Part shown: positions 768-64,000 of the stretch, piece by piece
Position numbering within the stretch: position 1 is the first letter of the stretch
Layout: each line of letters opens with the position of its first letter
IMG/VR virus record: IMGVR_UViG_3300028198_000256
Coordinates: 32,001-96,000 of that record
Reading direction: 5' to 3' (one strand)
DNA length: 64,000 nucleotides
Source: a virus
Notes under the pieces: generated by a model
Told to the model about the DNA's origin: nothing
The model's database searches: none
The model's input: only the letters and a program-made list of their open reading frames with translations
Translations under genes and position numbers: made by a program

Positions 768-1745
768 CTATAAAAGATGTTTAATTTCATCACGTTCTAA
801 TATTAATTCAGATTCACTCAATTTAATCATAGATAATGAGTATTCGTCAATATCTAAATCATCAACTATAAACAATTCACCTCTAGCGTGTCTAACAGGA
901 AATGAAAATACTAAATCAGAGTCAATACCATACTGTCCTGACGACAATACTGCCATGGATTCCCATCGTTGAGATCCACCCTTACCTGTCCACATTTTCA
1001 TTTGTTGTATTGCTGCATTAGCAGCTGAAGCAGCAGACGACGCACCGAGCCATTCAATAACCGAATGACCTCTATCTTGTACTAATGGTATATAATCTTT
1101 AACATACCAATCATCATCAATCAAATCCATTGCGGGAAATCCTTTCACTTGTGCATGATTCAAATCAGGATATAATGTTGATGAATGATTACCCCATATT
1201 ATAACATCATTAATTGTGGTATGAGGCACCCCACAATGTTTAGATACAATAGATTTACAACGATTAACATCTAATTGCATCATTCCAGTAAAATTGGTTG
1301 AATTCAACCCAACCGCATTAGATAAAGCCACTAAGGTATTAGTATTAGATGGATTGCCAGCAATCAACACTTTAACATCTTTCGATGCAACTTTACCTAA
1401 AGTTCGTCCATGAGAAGCAAATATCTTCGCATTATCTTGTAATAGATCGGAACGTTCCATACCCTTTAATCTGGGTTTAGCCCCCATCATAAACACATAA
1501 TCAGCATCACCAAATGCAACTTCGGGTTCATCAGTAATAACCACATCACCCAATGATGTGAAATTACAATCATCCAATTCCATTTGTATACCATGCAACG
1601 ATTTCATTGCTGATGGTACCTCTAATAACCTCAAATTAACAACATCATGTGTACCAAACAAATCACCACTCGCAAGACGGAATACTAAAGCATATCCAAT
1701 CCTACCAGCAGCACCTGTAATTGCAATATTAATAGATTTACTCAT
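768..1745 (-). CDS. mdh: NAD-dependent malate dehydrogenase (MDH type 2)
   Basis: ITGAAGRIGYAL, MELDDC, GAKPRLKGMERSDLL, GNPSNTN, IWGNHSSTLYPD, GASSAASAANAAI. Confidence 0.95.
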   Translation of the reverse strand: MSKSINIAITGAAGRIGYALVFRLASGDLFGTHDVVNLRLLEVPSAMKSLHGIQMELDDCNFTSLGDVVITDEPEVAFGDADYVFMMGAKPRLKGMERSDLLQDNAKIFASHGRTLGKVASKDVKVLIAGNPSNTNTLVALSNAVGLNSTNFTGMMQLDVNRCKSIVSKHCGVPHTTINDVIIWGNHSSTLYPDLNHAQVKGFPAMDLIDDDWYVKDYIPLVQDRGHSVIEWLGASSAASAANAAIQQMKMWTGKGGSQRWESMAVLSSGQYGIDSDLVFSFPVRHARGELFIVDDLDIDEYSLSMIKLSESELILERDEIKHLL

Positions 1746-1759
1746 AATTTACCTCAATA

Positions 1760-2182
1760 TTAATAGATTCCAAAATACCCCAAATCTCTATCATGAATAT
1801 TTAAAAACTTAAATTTCAATCCACGTTCCCACTTAACCGTACCATCAAGTTCATATAATGACATATCAGCAAATCTAATATTACCCTTTAGTACATTAAT
1901 AATTGCAATAGTTCTATGTTCCCATGAACCGGGTTTAGATAACGGTGTCTCTAATCTCACTAGAACATCGCCGTTCTTCATACCCTTACCAAATTCTTTA
2001 TAATCAGCCCCATCCGCCTTAAATACTACTTGCCATTTGTTAGTCTGTTTTTGTTCTAATACGGCAATACCATCAGAAAATGCACCAAGTGATGGTCTAT
2101 TTGAATGACTTATAGTCTTTGCAACAGATTCAAATGGTATCTTACCTGACATCTCAGTAACAAATGTGTTAAAACTCTTCAT
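1760..2182 (-). CDS. Hypothetical phage protein with capsid-targeting-like N-terminus
   Basis: Starts MKSFNTFVTE, resembling the T4 internal-protein capsid-targeting sequence (CTS) MKTYQEFIAE. Confidence 0.6.
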   Translation of the reverse strand: MKSFNTFVTEMSGKIPFESVAKTISHSNRPSLGAFSDGIAVLEQKQTNKWQVVFKADGADYKEFGKGMKNGDVLVRLETPLSKPGSWEHRTIAIINVLKGNIRFADMSLYELDGTVKWERGLKFKFLNIHDRDLGYFGIY

Positions 2183-2337
2183 ACCCTAATCCTCTTTTTT
2201 CTTAGTAAATATAGTCTTACCATATTCGGCAGTCATATCTTTTATTTTAGTACCAGACATATCATATAACTTTTGTTTTATTTCATCATTAAATTCTGAT
2301 ACCTTTTTATTTTTTAAATTATCAATCAAAGTACTCA

Positions 2338-2541
2338 TCACTTCTCCTTTTTTGTAAAATATACTGCCAATCCAGTAACATATAATAACATACTTAAAGG
2401 CATTAATAGTATAAGAATTGGATATTGTTCTATATTAGTAAATCCAAATACAACAAACATTATACCAATAAAGACTATACTTAATACTATTTTAGTATCC
2501 CTACGTTTAAATATATTTATAACATCATCCATTCTCAGCAT
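2338..2541 (-). CDS. Small membrane protein
   Basis: Two hydrophobic segments. Confidence 0.55.
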   Translation of the reverse strand: MLRMDDVINIFKRRDTKIVLSIVFIGIMFVVFGFTNIEQYPILILLMPLSMLLYVTGLAVYFTKKEK

Positions 2542-2711
2542 CTTTCCGTTTTTTTATTTTTTCATCAACTGCATCAAAAAATGGTGTTATTTCTGTTGGG
2601 TTACGAAACTCCGAATGTGTCATTCCTTGAACTCTCGCCCATTCCTCATCTGACATTATACCAGATTCTTTATCATTTGTCAAGTCTTTTTCCATAATTT
2701 CTACTCCATAT

Positions 2712-7049: not shown

Positions 7050-8012
7050 CTAATCCTCATATGTGTCCTTTCTACTATTTATAGTAGTAATCATTTCTAA
7101 TATATTTTTTGCCATTTTCTCAGAAGCAACATCTATCATTTTACCATCAAGTGATGCGGCACCATGCCCTTCTTTAGATGCTCTATATAATGCATCAAGT
7201 ATTCTGTCAGCCATGTGTATTTCTTCATCTGATGGTGTGAATACTTCATTTGCAAGTGGAATTTGTGACGGATGAATCGCCCACTTACCAGTACATCCAA
7301 GAGCAGCAGCACGCTTAGCAGCAAGTACATATCCCTCTGTATCCTTAATATCCCCATAAGGACCGTCTATTGGACGTAATCCATATGCCCTACACGCAAC
7401 TACCATCCTACTTAATGCAGAATGCCATTGATCTCCTGGATAATTCTCATTCAATCCACCAATATTAGTAGTTCTTGCTCTTGTAGACGCCGCATAATCA
7501 GCAACTCCAAAATGCATGGATTCTAACCTAGAATTAGCACTCTTTCTTGCAATTTCATCAACATTAGACATACCTAGAGCAGTTTCTATTAGACACTCTA
7601 ACTGGATATGTTGATACAAATCATGTTTTATCTCTAGTGTATTAATAATACATTCAACCATATATATATCATCATATACACCTACTTTTGGTATTAATAT
7701 AGTATCTAAGTTCTCACCACAATGTTCTACTAATTGTATAACATCATCTAACCAATAACCAGTTTCAAGTCCATTAATACGAACACATATAGTTTTGTTC
7801 GCACCTTTCCAATCAAGAGTATTAACAGCCTCAATCACATTTAAACGTGCATTTATTTTATCTGGTTCTGCAACTGAATCTTCTAAATCTAAAAATACAA
7901 AATCGGCATCAGAATTTAATGCCTTCTCAAACATTTTCGGACTAGATCCAGGTACTGTTAAATCACAACGTTGTAATCTAGATACTGATGGTTCATAAAC
8001 TGTATAACTCAT
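7050..8012 (-). CDS. mcl: Malyl-CoA lyase (CitE/HpcH CoA-ester lyase family)
   Basis: VPGSSPKMFEKA, FLDLEDSV, VRINGL, LIETALG, HFGVADYAAS, ARTTNIGG, PGDQWH, GKWAIHPSQI. Confidence 0.88.
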   Translation of the reverse strand: MSYTVYEPSVSRLQRCDLTVPGSSPKMFEKALNSDADFVFLDLEDSVAEPDKINARLNVIEAVNTLDWKGANKTICVRINGLETGYWLDDVIQLVEHCGENLDTILIPKVGVYDDIYMVECIINTLEIKHDLYQHIQLECLIETALGMSNVDEIARKSANSRLESMHFGVADYAASTRARTTNIGGLNENYPGDQWHSALSRMVVACRAYGLRPIDGPYGDIKDTEGYVLAAKRAAALGCTGKWAIHPSQIPLANEVFTPSDEEIHMADRILDALYRASKEGHGAASLDGKMIDVASEKMAKNILEMITTINSRKDTYED

Positions 8013-12408: not shown

Positions 12409-12440
12409 AATAGACTCCTTATAAAAAAGCAAGTTAAAAA

Positions 12441-19049: not shown

Positions 19050-19949
19050 TTATGTTAAGAAAAAATCATCCAATACAGTTGACGTTGAAGACGTTATATT
19101 ATTATGTTTAATATTATCAACTCCCATTTCAAAATCAGGTCTATTTTTATCCGATTCATTAATAATAATAACATCTTTAAGATCTGTTACATCTTTCCAT
19201 TGTAGTTTATCTTTTTTTGGATAATTCTTAGTCCAATTCATAGACGATAATTTAAGTAATATTTTAGCAGAACGTTTATCTAATGGATATATGTATCTAA
19301 ACATATAACCCTTATATCTACGTATACCACGTTCTTTCATAAATCCTGTGGTCAACCAACTCAACTTATCTTTTTTAAACATATCATCATTACGTCTTTC
19401 CCACTCTACATTTTCTTTACATAAATCTTTACTACTTCTTGGATGTAATTTCTCACCATTTTCCATCATATAAACATCTGTCCAATACCGTTCACCAAAA
19501 TAAAAATTAGATGCTTGATAAACATATCCACATTTACCCATAATTCCATCTGCCATAGTATACAAATATTTACAATTAGTATTCCGTTTAATCCACCTAA
19601 TACTTGATGATATCATGCAAGACCCATATGACTTAGTTCCATTTAATTTAGGTAACAAACACATTTTACCAATTTCAAAATAATAATTAGTCAAAGAATG
19701 TTTATATCCAGAACTCCGAACATTTGGAACATTCAATTCAAACAATTCATCCTTCAACGTTGGTAATATTTTAGCAATAGTATGTCTTGGTCGTGTACCC
19801 CACCCCAATGTCATAACTCCTGATAATTCATCCTTTAAAAAAAACCCAAGATAATGTGTAGTTAGTGCCGGCATAACTGGTGAATAATGATACTTTTCTA
19901 TAAACATAACAGCTGTTATTTTATCAATTTTTTTTACTTCAAACTTCAT
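19050..19949 (-). CDS. Mom-like GNAT-fold DNA adenine modification enzyme
   Basis: FIEKYHYS, GVMTLG, FEIGKMC, LYTMAD...GKCGYVYQASNFYFG, GEKLHPRS; ends VLDDFFLT. Confidence 0.72.
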   Translation of the reverse strand: MKFEVKKIDKITAVMFIEKYHYSPVMPALTTHYLGFFLKDELSGVMTLGWGTRPRHTIAKILPTLKDELFELNVPNVRSSGYKHSLTNYYFEIGKMCLLPKLNGTKSYGSCMISSSIRWIKRNTNCKYLYTMADGIMGKCGYVYQASNFYFGERYWTDVYMMENGEKLHPRSSKDLCKENVEWERRNDDMFKKDKLSWLTTGFMKERGIRRYKGYMFRYIYPLDKRSAKILLKLSSMNWTKNYPKKDKLQWKDVTDLKDVIIINESDKNRPDFEMGVDNIKHNNITSSTSTVLDDFFLT

Positions 19950-21048
19950 AATACTCCATAAGTTCTAATGATTCAGCAACCATTAAATTAGTGATTCTAC
20001 CATTATGTGTATATATACCATTTGTGAAATTAGGATCCACGTTATCAAGACCCATATCAGCCAAAACAGTTATATATGGTAATGTCGCCTTAGTAAGTAT
20101 GTTAGTAGCACTTTTAGGATATGCACCGGGCATATTAGACACACAATAATGAATAACCCCATGGTGCATAAATACAGGGTTCTGATGACTCCTAATATGT
20201 GACGTTTCAATGCAACCACCTTGGTCAATAGACACATCAACCACCACCGAACCGTTCCTCATACTTTTTACCATATCTTCAGTAACAACAATAGGAGATT
20301 TCTTTCCTGGTATTGAAACTGCACCAATAACTAAATCAGCATCTTTAACAGCAGGCTCCAAATTCCATGAAGTGGAACACTTATATTCAATAGAAGTATC
20401 CATATGACCTCTACTCAAATACTCCCAACGATAATCGGTTTCCAACCCTAAAATAATAACATTAGCACCCATCCCATTTGCCATCTCAGCCGCATGTCTA
20501 CCAACAACACCATCACCAACAACTACCACATTACCAGAATTAACACCATTAATTTTTCCTAGTTGTACACCAGACCCATCAAAAAACATTGACTTATCTG
20601 TATACTGAAGATAATAACTACCAATAGTAACCGCCATATTACCAGCAATAGCAGACATAGGTGACAACAACGGTAAATTACCAAAATTATCTGTTATTGA
20701 TTCATATGCTATGGCAGTAGTATTGGTGGATAATAATTTAAGTGTCAGTTCTTTATCTACACCCGCAAGATGAAGATAAGTAAATAATATTTGCCCATTA
20801 AAATATTTGTATTCTTCCACTTGAGGTTCTTTAACTTTAACCACAAGATCCGAATCCCATGCATAAAAGTCGTGGCATATTGTCGCACCGGATGATATGT
20901 AATCATCATCCGAATAACCAGAACCAACCCCAGCTTCAAATGTTACACATACAGAGTGACCTCTATCAACCAATTCACGCACACCATTTGGGGTAATTGC
21001 TACCCTATGTTCGTTTTCCTTTATTTCTTTGATTAATCCAATTTTCAT
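19939..21048 (-). CDS. ald: Alanine dehydrogenase
   Basis: MKIGLIKEIKENEHRVAITP, VKVKEP, FTYLHLA, LPLLSPMS, VDVSIDQGGCIETS, YCVSNMPGA. Confidence 0.95.
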   Translation of the reverse strand: MKIGLIKEIKENEHRVAITPNGVRELVDRGHSVCVTFEAGVGSGYSDDDYISSGATICHDFYAWDSDLVVKVKEPQVEEYKYFNGQILFTYLHLAGVDKELTLKLLSTNTTAIAYESITDNFGNLPLLSPMSAIAGNMAVTIGSYYLQYTDKSMFFDGSGVQLGKINGVNSGNVVVVGDGVVGRHAAEMANGMGANVIILGLETDYRWEYLSRGHMDTSIEYKCSTSWNLEPAVKDADLVIGAVSIPGKKSPIVVTEDMVKSMRNGSVVVDVSIDQGGCIETSHIRSHQNPVFMHHGVIHYCVSNMPGAYPKSATNILTKATLPYITVLADMGLDNVDPNFTNGIYTHNGRITNLMVAESLELMEYYEV

Positions 21049-21652
21049 ATTTAGTCCTCACTGATTCAACTTCCATCAATCTAGGAAGAATTTCATTAAT
21101 AACCCCTATATACAATTCAGATTCAGTAGCACGACAAGCATCACCTAACGATTGCACATCATCATTATCTCTAACTAAAACTAAATTCTGTTTCAATATC
21201 GGTCCAGAATCATATTCATCAGTAACAATATGTACAGTAACTCCTGTAACCTTATCATTAGACTCTAAGACTGATTTATATATATCATCACCAAACATAT
21301 TACCATGTTTAGGCAATAATGATGGATGGATGTTTAATATTCTATTTTCATACCCATTCAATACTATATTATTAACATGTTTCCTGTATCCAGACAACAC
21401 TACCAGATCAGTTGCAACTGATTTTAATTTATTAAAAATAGCATTATCTTCGTCATGTAGATTAGTTTTACCAGATATTATAGAAACATTAATACCATTA
21501 TCATGACACCATTGAACTATAGGAGCATCTTTATTATTACATATAACAACACCAACTTCAGCTACAATTCTCCATGAATTAATTGCTCCTATAACATCCC
21601 TAGCAGCAGTACCACCATCTGACGCCAAAAAACTAATAATTGGTGTCTTCAT
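21005..21652 (-). CDS. purN: Phosphoribosylglycinamide formyltransferase
   Basis: LVVLSGY, ILNIHPSLLPKHG, TGVTVH.V..EYDSGPIL.Q. Confidence 0.85.
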   Translation of the reverse strand: MKTPIISFLASDGGTAARDVIGAINSWRIVAEVGVVICNNKDAPIVQWCHDNGINVSIISGKTNLHDEDNAIFNKLKSVATDLVVLSGYRKHVNNIVLNGYENRILNIHPSLLPKHGNMFGDDIYKSVLESNDKVTGVTVHIVTDEYDSGPILKQNLVLVRDNDDVQSLGDACRATESELYIGVINEILPRLMEVESVRTKYENWINQRNKGKRT

Positions 21653-21656
21653 AATA

Positions 21657-23780
21657 TCACCTCAAATCTTTATCAAAATCATCTACCATAATTGATTCAT
21701 GTTCTAAAATTCCATCTAATTCGCCTTTCAGATTAGACTCATATGCCCTTTCTAAAATATTTAATGCATCCTTTGTATTAGATGATGTAAAAGTTTTATC
21801 TGTCAACCTAGACCTTGCATCAAATCCTAATGCAGATTTAATTGAATTAGGAACATTGACCACCGACTTCACCATTCTACTATTCAACTTATCTGATGGA
21901 CCCTTATATCTTCTACCAAATGGAAATATCAAACGTCTTAATATAAACCCAATGAACTTTGAAGGATAATTGTCTAAAATGTCCTCAAACGATTTCTGTA
22001 TATTATATAATCCAGACTCAGCACCCCATGTAACATATAATATATCATTCTTCTTATCCATATCATCAGTATCTTCGTAACGTTTTAATACCGCAGATGT
22101 CATATACAACTCTGAAAATGCATCTGCAAATCTACCAGTTATTCTTTGTCGTTTCTTAAGATCAGCACCCAACACCGATATACTTATATCAGATAACAAT
22201 GCAAAGTTCTTTGATTCCAATTCAATACGTTTATAATACTTACCAATTTCACATGATGCGTCTTTTGGTTTAGATATAAACATACCACCAGTAATATTAT
22301 GATATAATGACCCAAATATATTACCAATAGTATATTTAAGATGACCCATTAACGCCTTATTAAATGCAATCGCATCACCACATTCAGCAGAAGTTACTTC
22401 ATCTTTTATAAATGGATGACACCGTAAAGATCCTTGAGAAAATACAATTAGAGATCTCGTTAATATATTCGCACCCTCAACAGTATTAGCAATAGGTTGT
22501 GTTATATAATAATTCAATAATAAATTATTAGGACCATCAGATATACCCTTTCCAGCCAAAATGTCCATACCATCAATAATACATTGTCGCATCCTTTCAG
22601 TACATTGATATTTCAACATGGCAGAAATAACAGATGGTTTTTCACCATTTACTATTGCAGTAGTAGTGAGATTACACGCAGCCTCTACAACATAACATTG
22701 TCCAATTATCCTAGACAATGGCTCTTCAATACCTTCCATCTTGGAAATTGGAATTTTAAATTGTTTTCTTATCCTAGAATATGCAGTAGTAACTTTTAAT
22801 GTATGTTTAATACCAGCCATAGATAATGATGGTAATGATATTGCCCTACCAGCCGCAAGACACGCCATTAACATTCGCCAACCCTTTCCTACCCCATCAA
22901 TTCCACCTATAACATGATTCAATGGTAAAAATACATCTTTACCATAATTTGGTCCATTCATAAATGCTTGTCTAGCAGGATAATGTCTGCGTCCTATACG
23001 AACACCCTTAGTATCAGTTGGAACTAATACTAAACTTATACCCTCAACAGGAGGCGAATGCTCAGATTCTTTCAATAACTCATCAGGATCCACAATATGA
23101 CACGCAACACCAAGTAATGTAGATACTGGTCCTAGTGTGATATATCGTTTTTCCCAATTTAATCTAATACCTAATACCTTTTCACCGTCATATTCCCCAT
23201 ATTCAACAACACCATAATCTTCCATCGCCGCAGCATCTGAACCAGAATATGGTCCTGTTAATGCAAATGCCGGTATATCTTTACCTGATGATAATGTAGG
23301 TAACCATTTATCTTTTTGTTCTTGTGTGCCAAACTCATAAAGCAATTCACCAGGACCCAAAGAATTTGGAACCATAGTAGTAATTGCTAATGATATACTT
23401 CTTGATGCTAAAATTGATATGATACACGATTGTGCATATGCTGAAAATTCCAAACCACCATATTCTTTCTTGATATTAAGTGCAAAAAAACCATTATCTT
23501 TTAAATAATCCCACACCTCAACTGGTAAATCTTTATGTATAACATTAACTTCCCAATCAGACACCATTTCACAAACAGTATCAACTTCAGAGTTAATGAA
23601 ATCATGTTCTTCTTGTGTTAATTTAGTTTGTTCTGTATTTAATAATATATCCCAGTTTGGTCTACCACCAAATAACTCAGATTCCCACCATACTGTACCG
23701 GCATCTAAAGCCTCTCTTTCAGTATTTGATATCTTTGGTAATATCTTTTGGAATAATTTCATACCATATTCATTCATCAT
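21657..23780 (-). CDS. fadE: Acyl-CoA dehydrogenase, FadE type (lacks the N-terminal membrane anchor)
   Basis: LPKISNTEREALDAGTVWWE, MVPNSLGPGELL, FALTGPYSGSDA, KRYITLGPV, GRAISLPS, TVEGANILTRSL. Confidence 0.93.
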   Translation of the reverse strand: MMNEYGMKLFQKILPKISNTEREALDAGTVWWESELFGGRPNWDILLNTEQTKLTQEEHDFINSEVDTVCEMVSDWEVNVIHKDLPVEVWDYLKDNGFFALNIKKEYGGLEFSAYAQSCIISILASRSISLAITTMVPNSLGPGELLYEFGTQEQKDKWLPTLSSGKDIPAFALTGPYSGSDAAAMEDYGVVEYGEYDGEKVLGIRLNWEKRYITLGPVSTLLGVACHIVDPDELLKESEHSPPVEGISLVLVPTDTKGVRIGRRHYPARQAFMNGPNYGKDVFLPLNHVIGGIDGVGKGWRMLMACLAAGRAISLPSLSMAGIKHTLKVTTAYSRIRKQFKIPISKMEGIEEPLSRIIGQCYVVEAACNLTTTAIVNGEKPSVISAMLKYQCTERMRQCIIDGMDILAGKGISDGPNNLLLNYYITQPIANTVEGANILTRSLIVFSQGSLRCHPFIKDEVTSAECGDAIAFNKALMGHLKYTIGNIFGSLYHNITGGMFISKPKDASCEIGKYYKRIELESKNFALLSDISISVLGADLKKRQRITGRFADAFSELYMTSAVLKRYEDTDDMDKKNDILYVTWGAESGLYNIQKSFEDILDNYPSKFIGFILRRLIFPFGRRYKGPSDKLNSRMVKSVVNVPNSIKSALGFDARSRLTDKTFTSSNTKDALNILERAYESNLKGELDGILEHESIMVDDFDKDLR

Positions 23781-24069
23781 ATATCATACCTCTAAAATAA
23801 AATAAAATCCACCACCCATACTATTATATATAACATTAATGGTATACCAAATGTCAATACAGACATCCAAACCGACTTAGTAACAGATTTACACAACCCA
23901 TTACATTGATAATTAATCTTTTCCCTTATTCTCTCCATCCTTGACTGTACTAATTCTTCCACTTTCTTTATTCTCCGTTTTTTGTTTATTATTAAATATC
24001 ATATCCCAATTATCTCTATATTGTTTATTACTTACTTTAGATTTTATAGAATCTCCTGTTATATCATTC

Positions 24070-26614: not shown

Positions 26615-26622
26615 GAACTATT

Positions 26623-37106: not shown

Positions 37107-37889
37107 CTATAGTTCTTCTGGATTACCCCTTGTCGATTCTAAATGTTCAGCCCACGCACAACAGTCATGATACCCTGATGATGAATGATCATTAAAAGAA
37201 TCTATTTCAAATTGCAATAATCCACCACACATACCCCATATATATTGTCCAATCAAATACATTCTAGAATATCCAGAAACAACCCTACCATTACAATCAA
37301 AATATTTTAATAATCCAATATGTCTGAATCCAACAAGTTCTAATGGGTGTCGTGTAACTATATCACAATTATTTTTAAATCTATAAAATGTTGGAGTAAA
37401 CGAAGATGCAAAATCAGAATCACCCACTCTAGGCGACCCAAAAGTATATCCTATAGAATCTTTTCCACCAAATCGTGATGAGGCTAAAGTACATAAAGCA
37501 GCTCCCAAACTATGACCTGTAAAATATACATTCCTGTGTTTATCTCCGACTATTGAATAATCTACATAATGTTGAAACAAATCATCATATATCAAGTCTA
37601 ATGCACCCTTAAACCCCCTATGAACACTACCAATACTGTCTGATTCAACCTTTCTAAATTTTATATCTGCCTCAATATCTGACAATTGTGTCGGTTCCGT
37701 CCCCCGAAATACATATATAATATCTTCATCATCCCATAATCCATAACATTGAGTAGACCCATTATTAAAAAACTTAATATCATATTTCTCTGAATATATT
37801 TCTGAGAAATCTGCAACATCCAAATAAGCATTCATAGACAATCCAGAAAAAAACGTTGCATTTTTATAACTAAATTCCCTATTTAACAT
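37107..37889 (-). CDS. Class 3 lipase
   Basis: VFRGTE, VHRGF, TGHSLGAAL, TFGSPRVG, DIV, DH. Confidence 0.9.
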   Translation of the reverse strand: MLNREFSYKNATFFSGLSMNAYLDVADFSEIYSEKYDIKFFNNGSTQCYGLWDDEDIIYVFRGTEPTQLSDIEADIKFRKVESDSIGSVHRGFKGALDLIYDDLFQHYVDYSIVGDKHRNVYFTGHSLGAALCTLASSRFGGKDSIGYTFGSPRVGDSDFASSFTPTFYRFKNNCDIVTRHPLELVGFRHIGLLKYFDCNGRVVSGYSRMYLIGQYIWGMCGGLLQFEIDSFNDHSSSGYHDCCAWAEHLESTRGNPEEL

Positions 37890-38288: not shown

Positions 38289-38300
38289 ATAATAAATATA

Positions 38301-38618: not shown

Positions 38619-38650
38619 ATTTTTTTCCTCTTTGTTGTAAAAATGAAACA

Positions 38651-39175: not shown

Positions 39176-39179
39176 ACTA

Positions 39180-39482
39180 TTATGCTTTTAACTTTAAATC
39201 TTCCTCCGTTACAATATCTTCATACCCATCATACTCACGAACATAAAACTTTAACCCCTCTGTAACATATGACAATCTCATATTATCAAACTCATATAAA
39301 TTATGAGTTGGTTCTGACATCTCCATCACCTGTTTATGAAATGATTTCTCATCCCCATGCAAAAATTCATAAATTAATTCAGCATCCATTCTAAGTGATT
39401 GGGGTTTAATGGAAAATCCACTACCCCAACCAGCATGTATAAGAACTCCTACTTTACCATCTGCACTATAATATTTGCCCAT
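39180..39482 (-). CDS. Conserved hypothetical phage protein
   Basis: GKVGVL..AGWGSGFS...FYVREYDGYE. Confidence 0.65.
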   Translation of the reverse strand: MGKYYSADGKVGVLIHAGWGSGFSIKPQSLRMDAELIYEFLHGDEKSFHKQVMEMSEPTHNLYEFDNMRLSYVTEGLKFYVREYDGYEDIVTEEDLKLKA

Positions 39483-41463: not shown

Positions 41464-41466
41464 AAT

Positions 41467-42771
41467 TTATCTCTTTAAATTTTCAACTAATATTGCACCA
41501 CCTTGTCCATGTCCAATACATAAAGATGCAACCCCATAATGTCCACCACTTGATTCTAACGTCTTAATTAAATGATATACTATCCGTGTTCCAGAAGCAC
41601 CTACAGGATGTCCTATACTAATAGAACCACCATGAACATTTAATTTTTCATCAGGTATTAACCCAAATGGTTCATTCAATCCAAACTCAGATAAACAATA
41701 ATCTGCATCATTCATTGCCCTTGTACAACCAATAACTTGTGATGCAAAAGCTTCATTTAATTCCCAACTATCAATATCATCACATCGTAACCCATTTCTC
41801 ATAACAAGAGGAACTATTGACTGAACTGGTCCCAATCCCATCTCTGATGGATCTACTCCAGCCCACTTAGTATCAATAATTTTTGCAATAGCTTTATCAC
41901 GTAACCCATACTTATCCAAGGCATCCTCACTTGCCAACAAAACAAATGAAGCACCATCCGTAATAGGTGAAGAATTACCCGCAGTCACATTACCAAATAT
42001 TTTATCAAAAACTGGTCTTAATTTCCCTAATTTTTCAATAGTGTTCTTGGATCTAACAGATTCATCTTTATTGTAAAAATTCCCATCAGTATCATATATA
42101 GTAACAATCTCATCCTCTAATACATTAGTATTTTGTGAGATAGACGCTTTCATATGACTATCTAATGAATAAGCATCCATATCATTTCTAGATATATTAA
42201 ACTTATATGCCAAATTCTCGGCAGTCTGTCCCATTGATAAATTAATAGTTGGATCTTTTAATGCACGTAATAAACTAATCACTGGAACTAATAACTTAGG
42301 TCTAAACTTAAGTAACACAGACAACTTCTTAGAAAATGTCTTAGCTAATGTAAATTCAGACAACCACATAGTCATATCATCATTAAATAATAATGGTGCC
42401 CTACTCATAGTTTCCGTACCACCAGCAATAATCAAATCAGACTGTCCACAAGATATACTCCTATATGCCGAATCAATTGACTGCAAACCAGAAGCACAAT
42501 TTCGTTGTACCGTATATGCCGGTATATTAACATTAAGTCCTAATCGTAATGCTAACAATTTTGCAATATTACACTCATCGGCGTTGGGGTTCATGCAACC
42601 AACAACCAATTCATCCACATCATCATTACCAATATCATTACGAATCAACATAGGTCTAACCACCTGAATAGCCAAATCCAATGCCTTAAACTTTCCAGGA
42701 CTTCCTTTAGCCTTTAAAAAAGGTGTCCTACTACCATCTACAATATATACATCATTTAACTTATATTTCAT
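41467..42771 (-). CDS. fadI: 3-ketoacyl-CoA thiolase (FadI/FadA)
   Basis: RTPFLKA, QRNCASGLQ, TAGNSSPITDGA, NEAFA, GHPVGASG, LCIGHGQG. Confidence 0.93.
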   Translation of the reverse strand: MKYKLNDVYIVDGSRTPFLKAKGSPGKFKALDLAIQVVRPMLIRNDIGNDDVDELVVGCMNPNADECNIAKLLALRLGLNVNIPAYTVQRNCASGLQSIDSAYRSISCGQSDLIIAGGTETMSRAPLLFNDDMTMWLSEFTLAKTFSKKLSVLLKFRPKLLVPVISLLRALKDPTINLSMGQTAENLAYKFNISRNDMDAYSLDSHMKASISQNTNVLEDEIVTIYDTDGNFYNKDESVRSKNTIEKLGKLRPVFDKIFGNVTAGNSSPITDGASFVLLASEDALDKYGLRDKAIAKIIDTKWAGVDPSEMGLGPVQSIVPLVMRNGLRCDDIDSWELNEAFASQVIGCTRAMNDADYCLSEFGLNEPFGLIPDEKLNVHGGSISIGHPVGASGTRIVYHLIKTLESSGGHYGVASLCIGHGQGGAILVENLKR

Positions 42772-44183: not shown

Positions 44184-44192
44184 ATCACCGAA

Positions 44193-46944: not shown

Positions 46945-47345
46945 TCTAATAAATTTGGAAACACCTCGTCTACTAATCTTCTAGTTAACCACTTAACCTT
47001 CATTTTTTTATTTATAATTTTGACAACGATCTCAGACTCTTTATGATGTAAACTCTCCAAGAATTGAATAAATCTATGTTCACTCCTATAATTAACGAAA
47101 TAAGATTCATCTAAAAATACTTCAAATTCTGATAACCTTTTATGCAAATTACTTAGAGTATATCCCTCCGGAGAATCATCAGGAGTATACTTAGGCACTT
47201 TATCTAATGCAAAATGAAAATCATCAAACATCAATTTTAATGTTTTTAATAATAACTTACTATTATTTTGCAATAACACATGTTTTCTTTCTTTTGTATT
47301 CTTTGCCTCATCAAACTCAAAAAATACTTCGTGTATATGTTTCAT
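46941..47345 (-). CDS. Conserved T4-like hypothetical protein
   Basis: IHEVF...E..FIQFLESLH..E...VFPNLL. Confidence 0.65.
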   Translation of the reverse strand: MKHIHEVFFEFDEAKNTKERKHVLLQNNSKLLLKTLKLMFDDFHFALDKVPKYTPDDSPEGYTLSNLHKRLSEFEVFLDESYFVNYRSEHRFIQFLESLHHKESEIVVKIINKKMKVKWLTRRLVDEVFPNLLD

Positions 47346-48222
47346 TTATATCCTCTTTAAAATTATCTAATTGCATAAAAAACATCATCATTCTACGTGC
47401 TTGAAAATATTCCATCATAGTACGATTGTTACCATTTGGAGATTTAACGAAAGAATCCAATATATTATTAACAATTTCATCTGGTATACATGAAAAATCT
47501 ATAAGTTGTTTGTTTCTATCATATCTTCTAATCATATCCTCATTACAAAATTCTGAAGGGTTCTTCGATATATCCATCATATCAATTATACTTTTTTTAC
47601 GTAAAGATGTCTGCCGTTTACCAGTTGCGAATACATCATCATCTGATAATATATTTGGAATTCCATCTGATCTATCACCCCTTATAATATGTTCTCTTAA
47701 AAACTTTAATGGGTTATCAGTAACTAAAAACTTACCAGCACTTTGACTATATTGAAACACGCCATCATAAATTTGTAATTGTTTAAAATCTTTATCAGAA
47801 GATAATATCAATACCTTTTCAAGATGATGATACTCTTTAGTCAAAATTGCAATAATGTCATCTGCCTCAGTTTTATCAATCTCTAACACTCTATATGGAA
47901 AATAATCAACCAAATCCTTCTTTATGGAAGACATGCCATCAAATACAAATTTCCAATCAAATTTAGAAGTCTCTCTATCTTTCTTCCTAGAATGTTTATA
48001 ATACGGAAATATATCCTTTCGCCAAAAATGTTTATTATCACAACATATAACAATATTACCATATTTTTTAGAATATTTCTTTTTAACAGATAATACATAT
48101 TCTAAAAATAAATTCATAACCGCAGAATATTCAACTATATCATCTGGTTCCTCTCTTAACGTATTGTTCAATTCCCTAATAGATAAACTTATTATAATTT
48201 GATTAAAATCTATTAATATCAT
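47317..48222 (-). CDS. rnh: T4-type RNase H (5'-3' exonuclease)
   Basis: MILIDFNQI, WRKDIFPYYK..R, EADDIIA, SSDKDFKQL, GDRSDGIPN. Confidence 0.93.
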   Translation of the reverse strand: MILIDFNQIIISLSIRELNNTLREEPDDIVEYSAVMNLFLEYVLSVKKKYSKKYGNIVICCDNKHFWRKDIFPYYKHSRKKDRETSKFDWKFVFDGMSSIKKDLVDYFPYRVLEIDKTEADDIIAILTKEYHHLEKVLILSSDKDFKQLQIYDGVFQYSQSAGKFLVTDNPLKFLREHIIRGDRSDGIPNILSDDDVFATGKRQTSLRKKSIIDMMDISKNPSEFCNEDMIRRYDRNKQLIDFSCIPDEIVNNILDSFVKSPNGNNRTMMEYFQARRMMMFFMQLDNFKEDINETYTRSIF

Positions 48223-57043: not shown

Positions 57044-57072
57044 ATAATACCACAATATGACTCAAATGTCAA
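57044..57072 (-). promoter_or_regulatory. sigma70-type promoter upstream of tRNA-CAU
   Basis: TTGACA-17-TATTAT. Confidence 0.7.
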
Positions 57073-59344
57073 GTCTTTTTTCAATAAACATTGAAATTCT
57101 TTCCCATATTAAATCAGAATTATTATACAATATACCATGACAATCAGAACCAATAATATGCATTTCTTTATCTACAGAAGATATATTATTATATATATAA
57201 TCAGCACCATCTACTGAAACTAATGTGTCATCCTTAGAATAAATGACCAACATAGGTATTGTTACATCACATAAACACTTCTTCACACTTTTAACTAATT
57301 TACCTATTTCATATATACTACGTGTGGGAACTAACCAATAATTAATATGTTCATTCTCTGGAATATTCTTAAAAAAAGGTTTCACTCCATTATTCCCTAT
57401 CACCAAACCCACCACCCTATTAACATAATGAACTAATGGTGCAAATTTAACCCGGAAATCCGTATAAAAAAATGGAGCTGATATAACAACTACTGATTTA
57501 ACTCTATAATCAGAAGAAAATTCTTCACGTAATGCAATAAGTCCGCCAGTAGAAAATCCAACAATCACAATATTTTCAGATAACATAGAAGTTATTTGAA
57601 AATACTCGTATACTGATTTAATCCAATCTTCATAACTATATGATAACAAATCATAAGGTGATGTACCATGTCCAACTATTCTTGCACCAACTACAATATA
57701 TCCTATACCACATAAATATTCACCAAAACCTCTAACTTCATATGGAGATGACAATAATCCATGGATTAATAACACAACAATACCATTAGACTTCTTAGGA
57801 AATAGAATAAATGGTTTATTATCAGAAGAATTAATACCATCAAATTTAGAATTATATTTATCATTAATATACATATTCTTATCGTACTCATATGACAACT
57901 GTTGGTCGTCCAATAAATGCATTGCAATATCTTTGTTACTAATAGTATCTACACTTTCAACAATCTTATTAATAACTTTACCAACAATAGAAACCGGCTG
58001 TACTTCATTATAATATACAACTAATAAATTCTCAACCCTAACCGTCAACGGATCTACACCAGAATCAAAATTACCAGATAAATATATAACATCACCACCA
58101 ATAATTAGCAATCCTTGTTTTTCAAGAGAATCAATATACTTAATCATGTTAACATTATTACCATTTAATATATCACCATATATATTAGGTCGCATTAAAC
58201 CATCGTGCAACCTCACTCCTGATTTATGTTGTAATGTTTTTAATGTTAAATATAACTCCTTATAAAGTGTTTTCTTATTTACAAATGATATATTTTGTTT
58301 GAATCTATACATCAATAAACAAGATGTCAGATGGCTTAAATTAATAGTAACATAAGAATAAATACTTTTAGTGTAAAAGTCACGTGTAACATTAGAACAC
58401 TTTATGAGATGTTTATGCAACATCTCACCTTTCCAAGACTTATCAACACTACCAATAGAAAACACATCATCTAAGGATTTTATAGAATCAGTAAATGTTT
58501 CAGTTAAAGATGACTTCCATGAATGCCAAATACCGGAGGTAGATATCACTTTACTCATAACAACATCCATATCAGTATCTTTAGTAATTAAATTCCCCTC
58601 AACTATCAATTCTTCTGTTTGTCGTAATGTAAGTCCATTAGAAATATATTCAACAGCCTTCAATAAAACATTATCAGTCGCACGTAAAGGATAAAACGTT
58701 ATATTAGATGCAACTATATTAGTAGGTATTTCTACTGCTGCCAATAACTCATCCAAACTATGAAAATCTAATTCCTTTTGCCACATTAATAATCTATCCA
58801 TATCCATATCTCTATGAGCATTACGAACTATGAACTTAAACACCTCCAACCCATGTGACAAAACAGCTGCACCAGTATGTTGTTTCCGCACTTTCATGGT
58901 TGTTTGACATAACATATTATAATGTCCTTCATCATCAACAACCCGATGATCCTTTACCATCCCACCTTCAGGGAAAATAACTACTTTATGACCATGTAAT
59001 ATTTGTTTTGCTAATATAGAAAACAACCTTGGATGATCATGTGGTACAACCCCCAACTTCGTTAAATACGATGACAATATACCATCATTTTTAAAAAATT
59101 CACCAGAACCAACAGAATAACAATAACTACCATTTTCTTCATGTATCAAATATTGAGGAATAAATGTTTCTATACGAGAAAAATGATTAAATACAAATAT
59201 ACTACCATCATTTATATTACACGCAGAATGAATATTAACATTCATGCGTAACACTTTCTTCATAATACGAAATGCTCGTAAAGACAAACGATACATACGT
59301 TTGTCTATATCAACCCAATCATGATTATACTTAGAAAGTTTCAT
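57062..59344 (-). CDS. Acyltransferase (PlsC/PlsB-like) fused to an alpha/beta-hydrolase esterase
   Basis: FNHFSRIE and IFPEGG acyltransferase blocks; C-terminal LIHGL, GHGT, GFSTGG, D..V, H triad. Confidence 0.8.
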   Translation of the reverse strand: MKLSKYNHDWVDIDKRMYRLSLRAFRIMKKVLRMNVNIHSACNINDGSIFVFNHFSRIETFIPQYLIHEENGSYCYSVGSGEFFKNDGILSSYLTKLGVVPHDHPRLFSILAKQILHGHKVVIFPEGGMVKDHRVVDDEGHYNMLCQTTMKVRKQHTGAAVLSHGLEVFKFIVRNAHRDMDMDRLLMWQKELDFHSLDELLAAVEIPTNIVASNITFYPLRATDNVLLKAVEYISNGLTLRQTEELIVEGNLITKDTDMDVVMSKVISTSGIWHSWKSSLTETFTDSIKSLDDVFSIGSVDKSWKGEMLHKHLIKCSNVTRDFYTKSIYSYVTINLSHLTSCLLMYRFKQNISFVNKKTLYKELYLTLKTLQHKSGVRLHDGLMRPNIYGDILNGNNVNMIKYIDSLEKQGLLIIGGDVIYLSGNFDSGVDPLTVRVENLLVVYYNEVQPVSIVGKVINKIVESVDTISNKDIAMHLLDDQQLSYEYDKNMYINDKYNSKFDGINSSDNKPFILFPKKSNGIVVLLIHGLLSSPYEVRGFGEYLCGIGYIVVGARIVGHGTSPYDLLSYSYEDWIKSVYEYFQITSMLSENIVIVGFSTGGLIALREEFSSDYRVKSVVVISAPFFYTDFRVKFAPLVHYVNRVVGLVIGNNGVKPFFKNIPENEHINYWLVPTRSIYEIGKLVKSVKKCLCDVTIPMLVIYSKDDTLVSVDGADYIYNNISSVDKEMHIIGSDCHGILYNNSDLIWERISMFIEKRLDI

Positions 59345-61409: not shown

Positions 61410-62082
61410 AAGCTAAACTCAACGGTAATAACTTATTTAATGGTAAATCAATCTGTATAACATTAAGTTTCATATTTTTGTTTATCAATAACGCAGATAA
61501 AAATCTATGATGACCATCAATAATACGATTATCAGACGATACTATTAACGTCTTAGAATTCAATAAATCGATAGTGGATTCAACACCATTCTTAGATATG
61601 GTTTTAAACCCCTTATCAAAATATATTTGAGCCTGAATTGGTATCAAATCCTTTGCAGAAATCTTCCCACGCACAATAGATACAACATCATCTTCAGCAT
61701 CACCGTCATATTTCTTTAATCCTGACTTTAAAAAACTATTAGCTTTAGTGCCAGACAATCCTTCTGGAAATGGATTTGATTGATCAGTATCATCTGCAAA
61801 TGGTTTTGTTATATCTAAAAACCCCTTAGACAATCTCTTTTGAAATTTATTAACATCCTTTGATGTTATAACAGGCATATCCTTTCTTTTAGTATGTCCT
61901 TTACGAGCCAACTTCTGTGCTAAAATATAATTAGAATCAAAATCAGGGATATCTTCATCTAACGTAGACATCTTACTCAATGCAAACTTACGGGCATCTG
62001 ATAGAGACGTAGTAAGAAGTTCAAGTTTACCAGCCGCAGCACCACCACCCTTTTCCATTAAATAATTCTTAAATGATTTCAT
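61375..62082 (-). CDS. ParB/Srx-domain protein with CTS-like N-terminus
   Basis: MKSFKNYLME; L.PIQAQIY...IVSSDNRIIDGHHRF. Confidence 0.7.
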   Translation of the reverse strand: MKSFKNYLMEKGGGAAAGKLELLTTSLSDARKFALSKMSTLDEDIPDFDSNYILAQKLARKGHTKRKDMPVITSKDVNKFQKRLSKGFLDITKPFADDTDQSNPFPEGLSGTKANSFLKSGLKKYDGDAEDDVVSIVRGKISAKDLIPIQAQIYFDKGFKTISKNGVESTIDLLNSKTLIVSSDNRIIDGHHRFLSALLINKNMKLNVIQIDLPLNKLLPLSLAYGDSIGNKRNQ

Positions 62083-63296
62083 TTCTCCCAACCTTTTATT
62101 ATATCTTTTGAAAAATTATTTGCTGAAAATTCCATTCGGTTTACCAATTTAACAGCATTATCATTACGATCAATTGCAACAAATCCTTCTGAACCAGATA
62201 CTTTAAATCCATCCTTGGTTCTTACAAAGGTAGATATATCAGACACACTCTCCATTTTGTCTATTAAAATCTCTTTAGCATCAACTAAATGATTTTGTAA
62301 CTCAAACATCAATCTTAAATTCTTTTTATTAGAATCCGAAAAAAAACTTAAAACATCTTCTCTTGATTTCGACTTTTTAGCTTTGCCTTTATCAGACTTC
62401 AATTTGTCAATATCTTTTTGATACTTATCTGAAATATATTTAATAAGTTCATCTGTGTGTTTTCTAGTATTTGTAATCTTCTCTTGTGACCTAACTTTAG
62501 TATTATTAAACGTATTAATCAACTGATTAATAACTGAATTGGTAGAAACATCATTTAATGTTGTTGCAGATATTTTTCTAAATATCTTACCAGCATCAGA
62601 TAAATGTGATGTAACTATATCAGTTTCAGATTTAGTCATAGTCGCGGTTCCAGACAAATCAGTAAGGTCAGCAGTTCTCGTCCATACACTCGAAGTCTTT
62701 TTAAAGTCACGAATACTAATATTAAATGATGCAGACATATTCTCAAAAGAATCACCAGTATATTTTGTATGCCAAACAACACCTATCTTTGACTGTAATA
62801 TAGAACCAGCCTGTGATGTTGGTACAGCGTATACTATCGTATTAGGATGAAAGGTAACATAAGACTCACCATCAATTGTTTCATTCTTAAGATCAGAATT
62901 AGTATACATAATATCACCTTGCATGACACCCTTAATACCAAGTTTCCTTAATTCAGTATATGCAATCTTTAACTTACTAGCTAAATCACCAGAAGTGTCG
63001 TCATCTATATCGTTATGTGACTTATATACTTTTGGATTCTTATTAAATATACCCTTCTTCGCAACAAAAAACTGTCCATCTGTCGGGTCAATACCAGCAA
63101 ACACAGCAGGAGCGCCATCCCACTTAACAGTAACTGAATGTGAAGTATTAGAATTACCAGACAACATATCTCTCAATGACCTTAAAGCATTAATGGCACC
63201 ACGTGTGCCATTAACGCCACCATCAAGGACAAGATCCTCAATATGAGTCATATGAGTATTTTTAGCTTCTGTTACATATTCTTGAAATGTTAACAT
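62079..63296 (-). CDS. Conserved T4-like protein (DUF6267-like), CTS-like N-terminus
   Basis: MLTFQEYVTE; NTHMTHIED, TVKWDGAPA, QGDIMY, EGFVA, KLVNRMEFS. Confidence 0.75.
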   Translation of the reverse strand: MLTFQEYVTEAKNTHMTHIEDLVLDGGVNGTRGAINALRSLRDMLSGNSNTSHSVTVKWDGAPAVFAGIDPTDGQFFVAKKGIFNKNPKVYKSHNDIDDDTSGDLASKLKIAYTELRKLGIKGVMQGDIMYTNSDLKNETIDGESYVTFHPNTIVYAVPTSQAGSILQSKIGVVWHTKYTGDSFENMSASFNISIRDFKKTSSVWTRTADLTDLSGTATMTKSETDIVTSHLSDAGKIFRKISATTLNDVSTNSVINQLINTFNNTKVRSQEKITNTRKHTDELIKYISDKYQKDIDKLKSDKGKAKKSKSREDVLSFFSDSNKKNLRLMFELQNHLVDAKEILIDKMESVSDISTFVRTKDGFKVSGSEGFVAIDRNDNAVKLVNRMEFSANNFSKDIIKGWEK

Positions 63297-63322
63297 ATAT
63301 TACAACTCTAATTGTAAAATTA

Positions 63323-63330
63323 TATTTATA
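63323..63330 (-). promoter_or_regulatory. T4-type late promoter
   Basis: TATAAATA about 27 nt upstream of the 63296 start. Confidence 0.65.
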
Positions 63331-63333
63331 ATA

Positions 63334-64000
63334 TTAAAACTGTTCCTCTTCAGTAGAACCATCCATAGCAGTAACCGATGAGTTACCACCTTGTATAACA
63401 TTTGTAACAGAATCAAAATAACCAGCACCAACTTCCTCTTGATGCCTTGCAAATGTATATCCATCTTTAACCGAATTAAACTCAGGTTCTTGGACACCCT
63501 CCACATAAGCAGTCATACCACGTTCAACATAATCTTTTGACAACTCAAACATAGAATGCCACATATCATGAATACCAGCCAGCGTAATAAATTGCCACTT
63601 GAACCCCATCTCTCCCAATTTTTGTTGATAGTGTGCTATTTCTTCGTCGCTCAAATTCTTCTTCCAATTAAAAGACGGTGAGCAGTTATAAGCCAGCAAC
63701 TTGCCAGGATACTGTTGGTGTATCGCAGTCGCAAATTTTTGAGCCTCTTCTAAATTCGGCACCGCAGTTTCACACCAAAGCATATCAGCATAAGCCGCAT
63801 AAGATAATCCCCTTGATATCGCTTGGTCTATTCCGCAGTTGACTCTAAAAAAACCCTCTTCAGTTCTCTCCCCTGTGACGAATTCCTTGTCACGAACATC
63901 AATATCAGATGTCAGCAAAGTTGCTGCGTTAGCATCTGTCCTTGCGATAATAACGATAGGCACACCCATAACATCAGATGCCAATCTCGCGGATACTAGT
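63334..64000 (-). CDS. aceA: Isocitrate lyase (5' part outside the window)
   Basis: [49 protein letters not shown]. Confidence 0.95.

Follow-up and report, generated by a model that had tools for sequence, protein, structure and literature searches.

Can a single phage encode the enzymes that take carbon out of lipid and carry it towards nucleotides? The question is raised by a 64,000-nucleotide stretch of viral DNA (the window; bases 32001-96000 of IMGVR_UViG_3300028198_000256, a linear, metagenome-assembled IMG/VR virus record of 115,003 bp), in which genes for two putative lipases, three enzymes of fatty-acid beta-oxidation, isocitrate lyase (ICL), malyl-coenzyme A (CoA) lyase (Mcl) and malate dehydrogenase (MDH) lie among T4-like phage genes. 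A preliminary description, made from the letters alone, had proposed that the phage degrades host membrane or storage lipid and channels the carbon into oxaloacetate, aspartate and deoxynucleotides. The analysis reported here bears that out in part: the gene set is real, viral, intact, conserved and under purifying selection, and the pathway logic (lipolysis, then the beta-oxidation spiral, then ICL, Mcl and MDH) is biochemically coherent; the overall interpretation is only partly supported. We think it probable, if well short of certain, that these genes form a block of auxiliary metabolic genes with which an uncultured marine T4-like myovirus adds lipid catabolism and anaplerosis or gluconeogenesis during infection.

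All the genes named in the preliminary description are present, full length and where it placed them, with catalytic motifs intact (Pfam, NCBIfam and PDB searches). The genes central to the proposed route are as follows, in window coordinates unless stated; bit scores are given against model cut-offs.

21657..23780, minus strand: FadE-type acyl-CoA dehydrogenase (707 aa); ACAD N, M and C plus ACDH_C domains
39466..41463, minus strand: FadJ/FadB-type enoyl-CoA hydratase / 3-hydroxyacyl-CoA dehydrogenase (665 aa); ECH_1, 3HCDH_N and 3HCDH domains
41467..42771, minus strand: 3-ketoacyl-CoA thiolase (434 aa); Thiolase_N and Thiolase_C; 3 nt upstream of FadJ, in fadI-fadJ order
37107..37889, minus strand: class 3 (fungal-type) lipase (260 aa); Lipase_3 domain of Pfam, 68 bits against 22
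57062..59344, minus strand: fusion of a PlsC-type acyltransferase and a monoacylglycerol-lipase-like alpha/beta hydrolase (760 aa)
63334..64000, minus strand: ICL, C-terminal 221 aa; the full 425-aa gene continues 611 nt past the window end
7050..8012, minus strand: L-malyl-CoA/beta-methylmalyl-CoA lyase Mcl (320 aa); PDB 5UGR (M. extorquens Mcl), E=8e-100
768..1745, minus strand: NAD-malate dehydrogenase (325 aa); NCBIfam NF003916 equivalog, 418 bits against 271
28045-30435 of the contig, just upstream of the window: phosphoenolpyruvate (PEP) synthase PpsA; three-domain architecture; equivalog, 1101 bits against 598

The contig and its relatives

Every large open reading frame (ORF) of the window is on the minus strand, and GC content is even (0.29-0.36). 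The contig carries a gp6 baseplate protein, gp32, gp59, a family B polymerase (PolB), a DnaB-like helicase, an SMC/gp46-like protein, T4 RNase H, ribonucleotide reductase (RNR), ThyX and Mom, and phage genes both flank the metabolic genes on either side and interleave with them. Two examples stand within or against the metabolic region:

47317..48222, minus strand: T4-type RNase H; Pfam 5_3_exonuc_N and RNaseH_C (T4); a phage marker within the metabolic region
62079..63296, minus strand: DUF6267 protein; Pfam E=5e-106; conserved in marine T4-like phages; adjoins ICL

The DUF6267 protein has tblastn matches in 468 phage records, the best being Phage C48C1 (55%) and Melnitz (48%).

G001, a 96.7-kb contig from another metagenome, is collinear with bases 37209-114999 of the contig (78 kb) at 76-97% nucleotide identity, and runs on into UvsW, gp23 capsid, scaffold, gp20 portal, tail sheath and the large terminase TerL. 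G003 is likewise collinear. The preliminary description had asked whether the contig is a single phage; the same junctions recur in independent assemblies, and the collinear G001 supplies the capsid, portal and terminase genes. The contig is thus one phage and not chimeric. Core genes on the contig and virion genes in G001 place it among the T4-like marine myoviruses (Kyanoviridae-like or pelagimyophage-like). The major capsid protein (gp23) is 60% identical to that of Melnitz and 58% to that of HTVC008M; the structural genes are closest to those of Methylophilales phage Melnitz, Pelagibacter phage HTVC008M and cyanomyoviruses. CheckV puts completeness of the 115-kb contig at 64%, which implies a full genome of roughly 180 kb.

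A more distant relative, G002 (60.9 kb), has a PolB 44-46% identical and a rearranged gene order. It nevertheless retains a 4HBT thioesterase, FtsH, PpsA, ICL, Mcl, ribose-phosphate diphosphokinase (Prs), lipase, FadJ, thiolase, FadE and aspartate 1-decarboxylase (PanD).

Beta-oxidation genes and putative lipases

The FadE-type enzyme scores 911 bits against a cut-off of 600 with NF007000 (855 against 1300 with the E. coli-specific FadE 'exception' model, which it thus fails) and contains the motif TVEGANILTR, of which EGANILTR is what we take to be the catalytic Glu motif. Residues 12-640 of the FadJ-like protein align with the E. coli FadJ structure 8BNU (E=1e-97). Its conserved blocks (GGGLELAL, PEVKLG, GAGVMGG and HFFNPV...PLVEV) are present, and both crotonase glutamates, the NAD-binding GxGxxG motif and the His-Glu pair are intact; the protein would be expected to work like FadJ, though its scores stop short of strict equivalog membership. 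The thiolase fits NF006030, 'acetyl-CoA C-acetyltransferase' (the PRK08170 model), with 606 bits against 593, and has the Cys-His-Cys triad: Cys92, GHPVG and a C-terminal CIGHGQG.

In the class 3 lipase the GHSLG serine and the Asp align with those of T. lanuginosus lipase, the His being assigned only from a C-terminal DH motif; no signal-like segment was seen at its N-terminus. The 760-aa fusion matches Pfam Acyltransferase over residues 36-135 and Hydrolase_4 over residues 523-740, with HX4D at 133 and GFSTG at 596. Its C-terminal domain is closest to monoacylglycerol lipases (PDB 7E04, E=2e-24).

A putative glyoxylate bypass

The complete ICL gene (L003:2334-3611) scores 737 bits against 562 with NF011645, carries KKCGH at residue 185 and lies 21 nt from the RNR large subunit; the protein is 99% identical in G001, 90% in G002 and 99% in G003. 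Mcl also matches 4L9Y (R. sphaeroides Mcl, E=8e-83), aligns over its full length (residues 1-311) and has the conserved active-site blocks RINGL, LIETA, FGVADYAAS and KWAIHPSQI; identity is 97% to G001 and 89% to G002. The sole NCBIfam model for Mcl is haloarchaeal, and the phage protein falls below it (128 bits against 500). MDH has GAAGRIG, PRLKGMERSDLL and GNHS, which cover the substrate arginines and the catalytic His, and is found on four other IMG/VR contigs at 64-97% identity with the same phage genes flanking it.

No match to malate synthase (PF01274) occurs on the 115-kb contig, so the canonical shunt of AceA with AceB/GlcB is incomplete there. The remaining step, malyl-CoA to malate, could be supplied by an Acot/YciA-type hotdog (4HBT) acyl-CoA thioesterase that lies just upstream of the window and is conserved in G002. 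This thioesterase and the PEP synthase, both outside the window, strengthen the route. Phage contigs contain no SucCD/Mtk-type ligase (Ligase_CoA family), and Pfam scans of the phage found neither PEP carboxykinase (PEPCK) nor malic enzyme.

Cellular genomes provide a point of reference. Of 400 Gammaproteobacteria sampled, 67 carry a homologue of Mcl, with identities of up to 67% (the tally includes G306, G151, G049 and G318, on which no specific claim is based). Five gammaproteobacterial genomes of 1.1-1.8 Mb (G264, G062, G327, G197 and G357) have an Mcl at 61-63% identity and no PF01274 match; ICL is present at 64-68% identity in all four of those tested for it (all but G357). These five genomes support the view that Mcl may stand in for malate synthase, and the combination of ICL with Mcl in place of malate synthase may be a form of the glyoxylate cycle, so far little described, that streamlined marine bacteria use.

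Nucleotide and cofactor genes

A second group of genes would draw on the products of this route:

19939..21048, minus strand: alanine dehydrogenase (AlaDH, 369 aa); TIGR00518 equivalog, 393 bits against 391.85
21005..21652, minus strand: PurN-like formyltransferase (215 aa); Pfam Formyl_trans_N
29367..29882, minus strand: aspartate 1-decarboxylase PanD with a C-terminal extension (171 aa); Pfam Asp_decarbox, E=6e-36
30694..31860, minus strand: quinone-dependent dihydroorotate dehydrogenase PyrD (388 aa); NF003652, 270 bits against 267
32481..32966, minus strand: inorganic pyrophosphatase Ppa (161 aa); Pfam E=9e-51; NF002317, 192 bits against 200
34383..35336, minus strand: ribose-phosphate diphosphokinase Prs (317 aa); NF002320, 331 bits against 297

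The best NCBIfam match of the PurN-like protein is PurN itself, at 117 bits and under the cut-off of 150; its gene is directly downstream of FadE both here and in contig L010. PanD has the self-cleavage site Gly24-Ser25 and scores 105.7 bits against 106 with TIGR00223. The 3-nt gap between thiolase and FadJ, the near contiguity of FadE, PurN and AlaDH, and the 21 nt between ICL and RNR fit co-expression with nucleotide metabolism.

Conservation, selection and origin

Homologues of FadE occur on 13 IMG/VR contigs. In G002 the lipase is 60% identical, FadJ 78%, thiolase 78% and FadE 58%. Its sister contigs L114 and L115 have Ppa, AlaDH and MDH side by side, and in L010 and L033 ICL, Mcl, FadE and PurN are contiguous.

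The ratio of non-synonymous to synonymous substitution (dN/dS) was estimated against G001, for which dS is unsaturated. Values for all metabolic genes fall between 0.03 and 0.27 (ICL 0.025, thiolase 0.09, FadE 0.12, lipase 0.25), similar to or below those of core phage genes; against G002 they are 0.06-0.18, with lipase at 0.11. Purifying selection acts on every metabolic gene. Together with the viral genes to either side and the conservation in related viral genomes, this selection marks them as auxiliary metabolic genes.

A separate observation concerns rates of divergence. Between the two phage lineages (G000, compared with G002), ICL (90%), Mcl (89%), FtsH (89%) and PpsA (86%) are far more alike than PolB (46%) or the helicase (53%), which suggests that the metabolic cassette has been exchanged between phages, or else that the replication module has been replaced.

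A FastTree phylogeny unites the 14 viral FadE sequences in a single clade (support 100, stem length 0.6) with two deep subclades. The nearest cellular FadE sequences retrieved are all from Gammaproteobacteria and at most 50% identical; the nearest named ones, at 46-50%, belong to Granulosicoccus, Thiogranum, Ectothiorhodospiraceae and others. A single long-stemmed viral clade, so low an identity to cellular enzymes, and purifying selection point to one old acquisition followed by long retention in phages. L033 (DQME01000048.1, 5.7 kb) is binned in 'Gammaproteobacteria bacterium SZUA-1055', a metagenome-assembled genome (MAG), and its ICL, Mcl and FadE are 86-92% identical to those of the phage. 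It groups within the viral FadE clade and is probably a phage fragment mis-binned into the MAG. A streamlined marine gammaproteobacterium is a candidate host, and this is only a lead.

The 10-kb stretch from lipase through FadJ to thiolase was found in marine and hydrothermal-vent metagenomes from at least 13 studies. Metatranscriptome contigs (four runs, four studies) match FadE, Prs, a keto-acid decarboxylase, lipase and FadJ at 99-100% identity, and cover 23-28 of the 30 bins of window positions 21501-41500, the gaps being uninformative; in three of the four runs the deepest bin is that of a permuted transfer-messenger RNA (tmRNA) gene. These matches are consistent with expression without proving it. 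The T4 late-promoter motif TATAAATA is not enriched (12 found, 19.6 expected) and sigma-70-like sites are at chance level (135 against 128), and since neither count is in excess the timing of expression cannot be read from them.

A possible route from lipid to nucleotides

If the enzymes act as their families suggest, then the cytoplasmic class 3 lipase and the monoacylglycerol-lipase-like domain would release fatty acids, which the host would activate to acyl-CoA, given that the phage has no FadD. Phage FadE, the FadJ-like enzyme and thiolase would then run the beta-oxidation spiral, yielding acetyl-CoA, NADH and electrons for the quinone pool. Phage ICL would convert host isocitrate to glyoxylate, which Mcl would condense with acetyl-CoA to malyl-CoA. 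Malate would be formed from this either by the phage hotdog thioesterase or by a host SucCD/Mtk-type ligase, and would be oxidised to oxaloacetate by phage MDH. PEP synthase, with AlaDH feeding pyruvate, would direct C3 carbon toward gluconeogenesis; Prs, the PurN-like protein, PyrD, Ppa, RNR, ThyX and dUTPase would draw ribose-5-phosphate and aspartate-derived carbon into nucleotides, and PanD would support the supply of CoA. The lipid substrate, the direction of Mcl, its thioesterase partner, the balance between energy and nucleotide carbon, and expression are parts of this scheme that we infer from gene content.

A bolder statement can be made tentatively, and we hold it to be a little less than evenly balanced: that this is the first virus of any kind shown with a complete beta-oxidation spiral together with its own lipases, an ICL and Mcl bypass, MDH and PEP synthase, kept through deep divergence by a marine phage lineage of wide distribution and used in situ as a nearly self-contained route from lipid to gluconeogenesis and nucleotides.

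Points against the route, and alternatives

Several observations weigh against the lipid-to-nucleotide route. The phage FadE spans positions 69-736 of the 816 in the FadE_coli model, so that about 65 N-terminal residues of the cellular enzyme of about 810 aa are absent, and with them its full-length architecture; phage FadE proteins measure 695-737 aa, cellular homologues 755-852 aa, a difference of about 100 aa. The FadJ-like protein is below the NCBIfam equivalog cut-offs (FadJ 496 against 869, FadB 465 against 870), as is the thiolase for FadI (313 bits against 560). The 115-kb contig has no FadD or other AMP-binding acyl-CoA synthetase and no electron-transfer flavoprotein (ETF); the preliminary description had seen no acyl-CoA synthetase and no malate synthase in the window, and this holds across the whole contig. 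A 538-aa ORF between lipase and FadJ in G002 was considered as FadD and rejected, being structural-like. Lacking an acyl-CoA synthetase, ETF and a SucCD/Mtk-type ligase on its contigs, the phage would depend on its host for key steps. In no contig is the thioesterase adjacent to Mcl. The phage 4HBT query found no homologue in the five genomes with Mcl and without malate synthase, a result that says nothing either way. Contigs from the RNA libraries tile nearly the whole 20 kb, so transcription is inseparable from DNA carry-over, and about 36% of the phage genome is unseen.

A further point against the route is the use made of the lipases, which could serve lysis or membrane remodelling instead. 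Under this alternative the class 3 lipase and the acyltransferase-esterase act in lysis, remodelling or superinfection exclusion, and the fad enzymes take host acyl-CoA, exogenous fatty acids, or storage polymers, for instance wax esters or polyhydroxyalkanoate (PHA). Substrate is not readable from sequence; the acyltransferase domain of the 760-aa protein suggests remodelling, and a PHA depolymerase model gives the hydrolase domain of the same protein a weak score (35.7 bits, where the cut-off is 300). The fusion is also separated from the fad genes by 14 kb, and the available 60 kb of G002 yielded no match to it. The class 3 lipase, by contrast, remains in the neighbourhood of FadJ-FadI and Prs in each of the two divergent lineages (in G002 it adjoins Prs) and has no apparent signal peptide, and a monoacylglycerol-lipase-like hydrolase beside it would complete lipolysis. 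We consider this alternative unlikely, though it deserves to be taken seriously.

In a second alternative the enzymes work as proposed and chiefly provide energy and reducing power: beta-oxidation would supply NADH and quinol for ATP, ICL, Mcl and MDH would do no more than prime the tricarboxylic acid cycle, and little lipid carbon would reach nucleotides. The respiratory chain receives electrons from FadE as well as from the quinone-dependent PyrD, the fad and ace genes of viruses have been taken as energy-producing (Hurwitz 2013, PMC4053976), and the lack of PEPCK and malic enzyme leaves C4 compounds unlinked to PEP. Against this, PpsA, AlaDH, MDH, Prs, PyrD, the PurN-like gene and PanD are interleaved with the fad and ICL genes, ICL adjoins RNR and FadE adjoins PurN, and a glyoxylate bypass saves carbon instead of burning it. 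A predominantly energetic role is rather unlikely on these grounds.

Mcl might, thirdly, work in the opposite direction, cleaving malyl-CoA with a host malate thiokinase (Mtk) in a serine-cycle-like arrangement, or handle propionyl-CoA via beta-methylmalyl-CoA, and so replace no malate synthase. In all five small gammaproteobacterial genomes a SucCD/Mtk-type ligase pair comes immediately after mcl, and in four of them no other Ligase_CoA pair was found; the closest characterised Mcl enzymes are bifunctional and reversible. This gene arrangement makes cleavage possible in principle, a point against the proposed route; equally, the step that a thioesterase may perform in the phage may fall to a thiokinase in cells. 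Phage ICL is a second source of glyoxylate, so that cleavage by Mcl would leave glyoxylate without a sink. Moreover, L010 and L033 carry ICL, Mcl and FadE as direct neighbours, malate synthase is absent from the phage contig and from the five cellular genomes alike, and the phage has no Mtk. We regard cleavage as very improbable.

That the contig is an assembly chimera or a miscalled bacterial fragment, as its origin as a linear metagenome assembly and the binning of a related 5.7-kb contig in a gammaproteobacterial MAG might suggest, is effectively refuted by the same junctions in other metagenomes, phage genes around and between metabolic genes on one strand at even GC, a collinear relative with capsid, portal and terminase genes, a nearest cellular FadE only about 50% identical, and the position of L033 inside the viral clade.

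Other features of the window

Between Prs and the lipase is a further enzyme:

35333..37063, minus strand: thiamine-diphosphate-dependent 2-keto-acid decarboxylase (576 aa); TPP_enzyme N, M and C domains

Its closest PDB entries are KdcA and the phenylpyruvate, indolepyruvate and pyruvate decarboxylases (E about 1e-54), and it is under the NCBIfam cut-offs. The gene overlaps the start of Prs by 4 nt, adjoins the lipase, and is kept in G001 and G003 (94-99% identity); it was not seen in G002. The C-terminal extension of PanD, about 75 aa, is not covered by PanD models. A 145-aa ORF that matches no family invariably comes after PanD, and the pair (29367-30322, minus strand) is kept in G001, G002 and L114; the ORF may encode a PanD partner or activator.

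Three further groups of genes are present:

16255-17187, 19050-19949, 26623-27498, 52840-53445, 54661-56142 and 59341-60381, minus strand: DNA-modification and anti-restriction genes
11980-12432 and 43161-46103 of the window, 21569-22096 and 26224-28035 of the contig: proteostasis genes
33136-33777 and 60409-61053, minus strand: iron permease fragment and glutathione S-transferase

The first, a dense content for one window, comprises three N6_N4 methyltransferases, a Dam-type methyltransferase, a Mom homologue and an S-adenosylmethionine-lyase-like protein. The second, a large set, comprises Hsp20, DnaJ, DnaK, a cyclophilin peptidyl-prolyl isomerase and a full-length FtsH. The FtsH gene has the thioesterase on one side and PpsA on the other, and its product shares 89% identity with that of the distant relative G002. 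The permease fragment is FTR1/EfeU-like (213 aa, far under family cut-offs); it and the transferase are conserved in G001.

The tmRNA gene (38736-39181, minus strand) is of the permuted, two-piece type and lies between lipase and FadJ. It scores 89.9 bits against 47 with Rfam RF04321 and was missed by ARAGORN; a blastn comparison with deposited phages, made for a clue to the host, found no match to it. A second, weak tRNA-like gene at 28764-28834 (minus strand; Rfam tRNA, 29.9 bits against 29) is likewise uncalled by ARAGORN, and a strong sigma-70-like promoter with an extended -10 lies just upstream of it, at 28892-28864. A Zeta_toxin-like P-loop protein at 2712-3662 (minus strand) is also weak (20.9 bits against 22.3). 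PHROGs and Pfam searches of the leftover unknown ORFs added no metabolic function.

Significance and comparison with known systems

Phage auxiliary metabolic genes usually patch single bottleneck steps; here about a dozen linked enzymes would rebuild a route from catabolism to anabolism. If the route is active, then infected cells in the mesopelagic, in oxygen-minimum zones and in vent plumes burn lipid to make phage DNA, and the way in which viral infection is budgeted in marine carbon and lipid cycling would change. It would also give a physical genome to a decade-old virome hypothesis of fatty-acid and glyoxylate reprogramming, and extend viral metabolic autonomy past the limit drawn in a 2022 review of giant viruses. 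The pairing of ICL with Mcl in the absence of malate synthase, found also in small gammaproteobacterial genomes, points to a little-described variant of the cycle.

The preliminary description knew of no phage with so coherent a set. That much stands, in that neither a deposited phage nor a paper among those searched has the full set in one genome; the idea itself is known from the viromes of 2013, the aceBA operon of 2017 and the partial sets of giant viruses. A search of 50,697 deposited phage records gave no genuine phage match to FadE, FadJ, thiolase or Mcl, and ICL matches C48C1 only. Apparent matches to the first four were set aside because they are bacterial contigs under a wrong label; examples are Acinetobacter phage MD-2021a, ECO95 fragments and Salmonella whole-genome shotgun sequence. 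In the literature and records searched, a linked complete spiral with an Mcl-type bypass in one phage lineage thus appears to be undescribed. Physiological context comes from Howard-Varona et al. (2024), who report that host fatty-acid degradation rises in phosphate-limited virocells (PMC11170926).

Set beside the E. coli system of FadE with FadJ/FadI (8BNU) or FadB/FadA, the phage has the same three enzyme types, domain architectures and catalytic residues, and shares the fadI-fadJ order with its 3-nt gap. It differs in that the set is virus-encoded, FadE is shortened, FadD, FadL, FadR and ETF are lacking, and the FadJ-like protein and thiolase are below the FadJ and FadI cut-offs, the thiolase fitting the PRK08170 model. 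With bacteria of the ethylmalonyl-CoA pathway and the serine cycle, namely R. sphaeroides (Mcl1 and Mcl2) and M. extorquens, the phage shares an orthologous Mcl and, on the proposed route, two-step malate synthesis via malyl-CoA. It has neither the CitE-like Mcl2 thioesterase nor Mtk, the candidate hydrolase being the 4HBT hotdog protein, and its Mcl is partnered by ICL and not by the ethylmalonyl-CoA pathway.

Among viruses, Prymnesium kappa virus (PkV) RF01 has a triacylglycerol lipase, an acyl-CoA synthetase and an acyl-CoA dehydrogenase, read as a lipid-fuelled energy supply; ICL and malate synthase transcripts are reported in Mimiviridae (PMC9270025). PkV RF01 and the phage thus both encode a lipase and an acyl-CoA dehydrogenase. 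The giant algal viruses are eukaryotic nucleocytoplasmic large DNA viruses, in none of which, according to the same 2022 review, enoyl-CoA hydratase or beta-ketothiolase has been found (PMC9270025), whereas the phage has both. Phage C48C1 (OQ984149, Kyanoviridae, 156 kb) encodes an ICL homologue at 53% identity, annotated as hypothetical, in addition to the DUF6267 protein; its record has no match to FadE, Mcl, FadJ or thiolase.

Closer in kind is the complete 179-kb T4-like viral genome TARA_ERS478052_N000008, in which Nishimura et al. (2017) describe an aceBA operon (PMC5332604). It is likewise marine, T4-like and about 180 kb, and has ICL with a malate-forming enzyme that uses glyoxylate and acetyl-CoA. 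A zeta-toxin homologue is also reported for it, and the weak zeta-toxin-like gene of the phage hints at a possible relationship with it. Compared by description, it is reported with the malate synthase AceB, whereas the phage has a true Mcl and no PF01274, and the 2017 account mentions no beta-oxidation, lipase, MDH or PpsA. Hurwitz, Hallam and Sullivan (2013) found fadB, fadL and aceA/aceB in Pacific Ocean viromes and proposed the same reprogramming of fatty-acid oxidation and the glyoxylate shunt (PMC4053976). That study did not report FadE, thiolase, Mcl, lipase and PpsA jointly, and its evidence consisted of reads and gene families unlinked to any one genome, whereas here the set is physically linked and conserved in one phage lineage.

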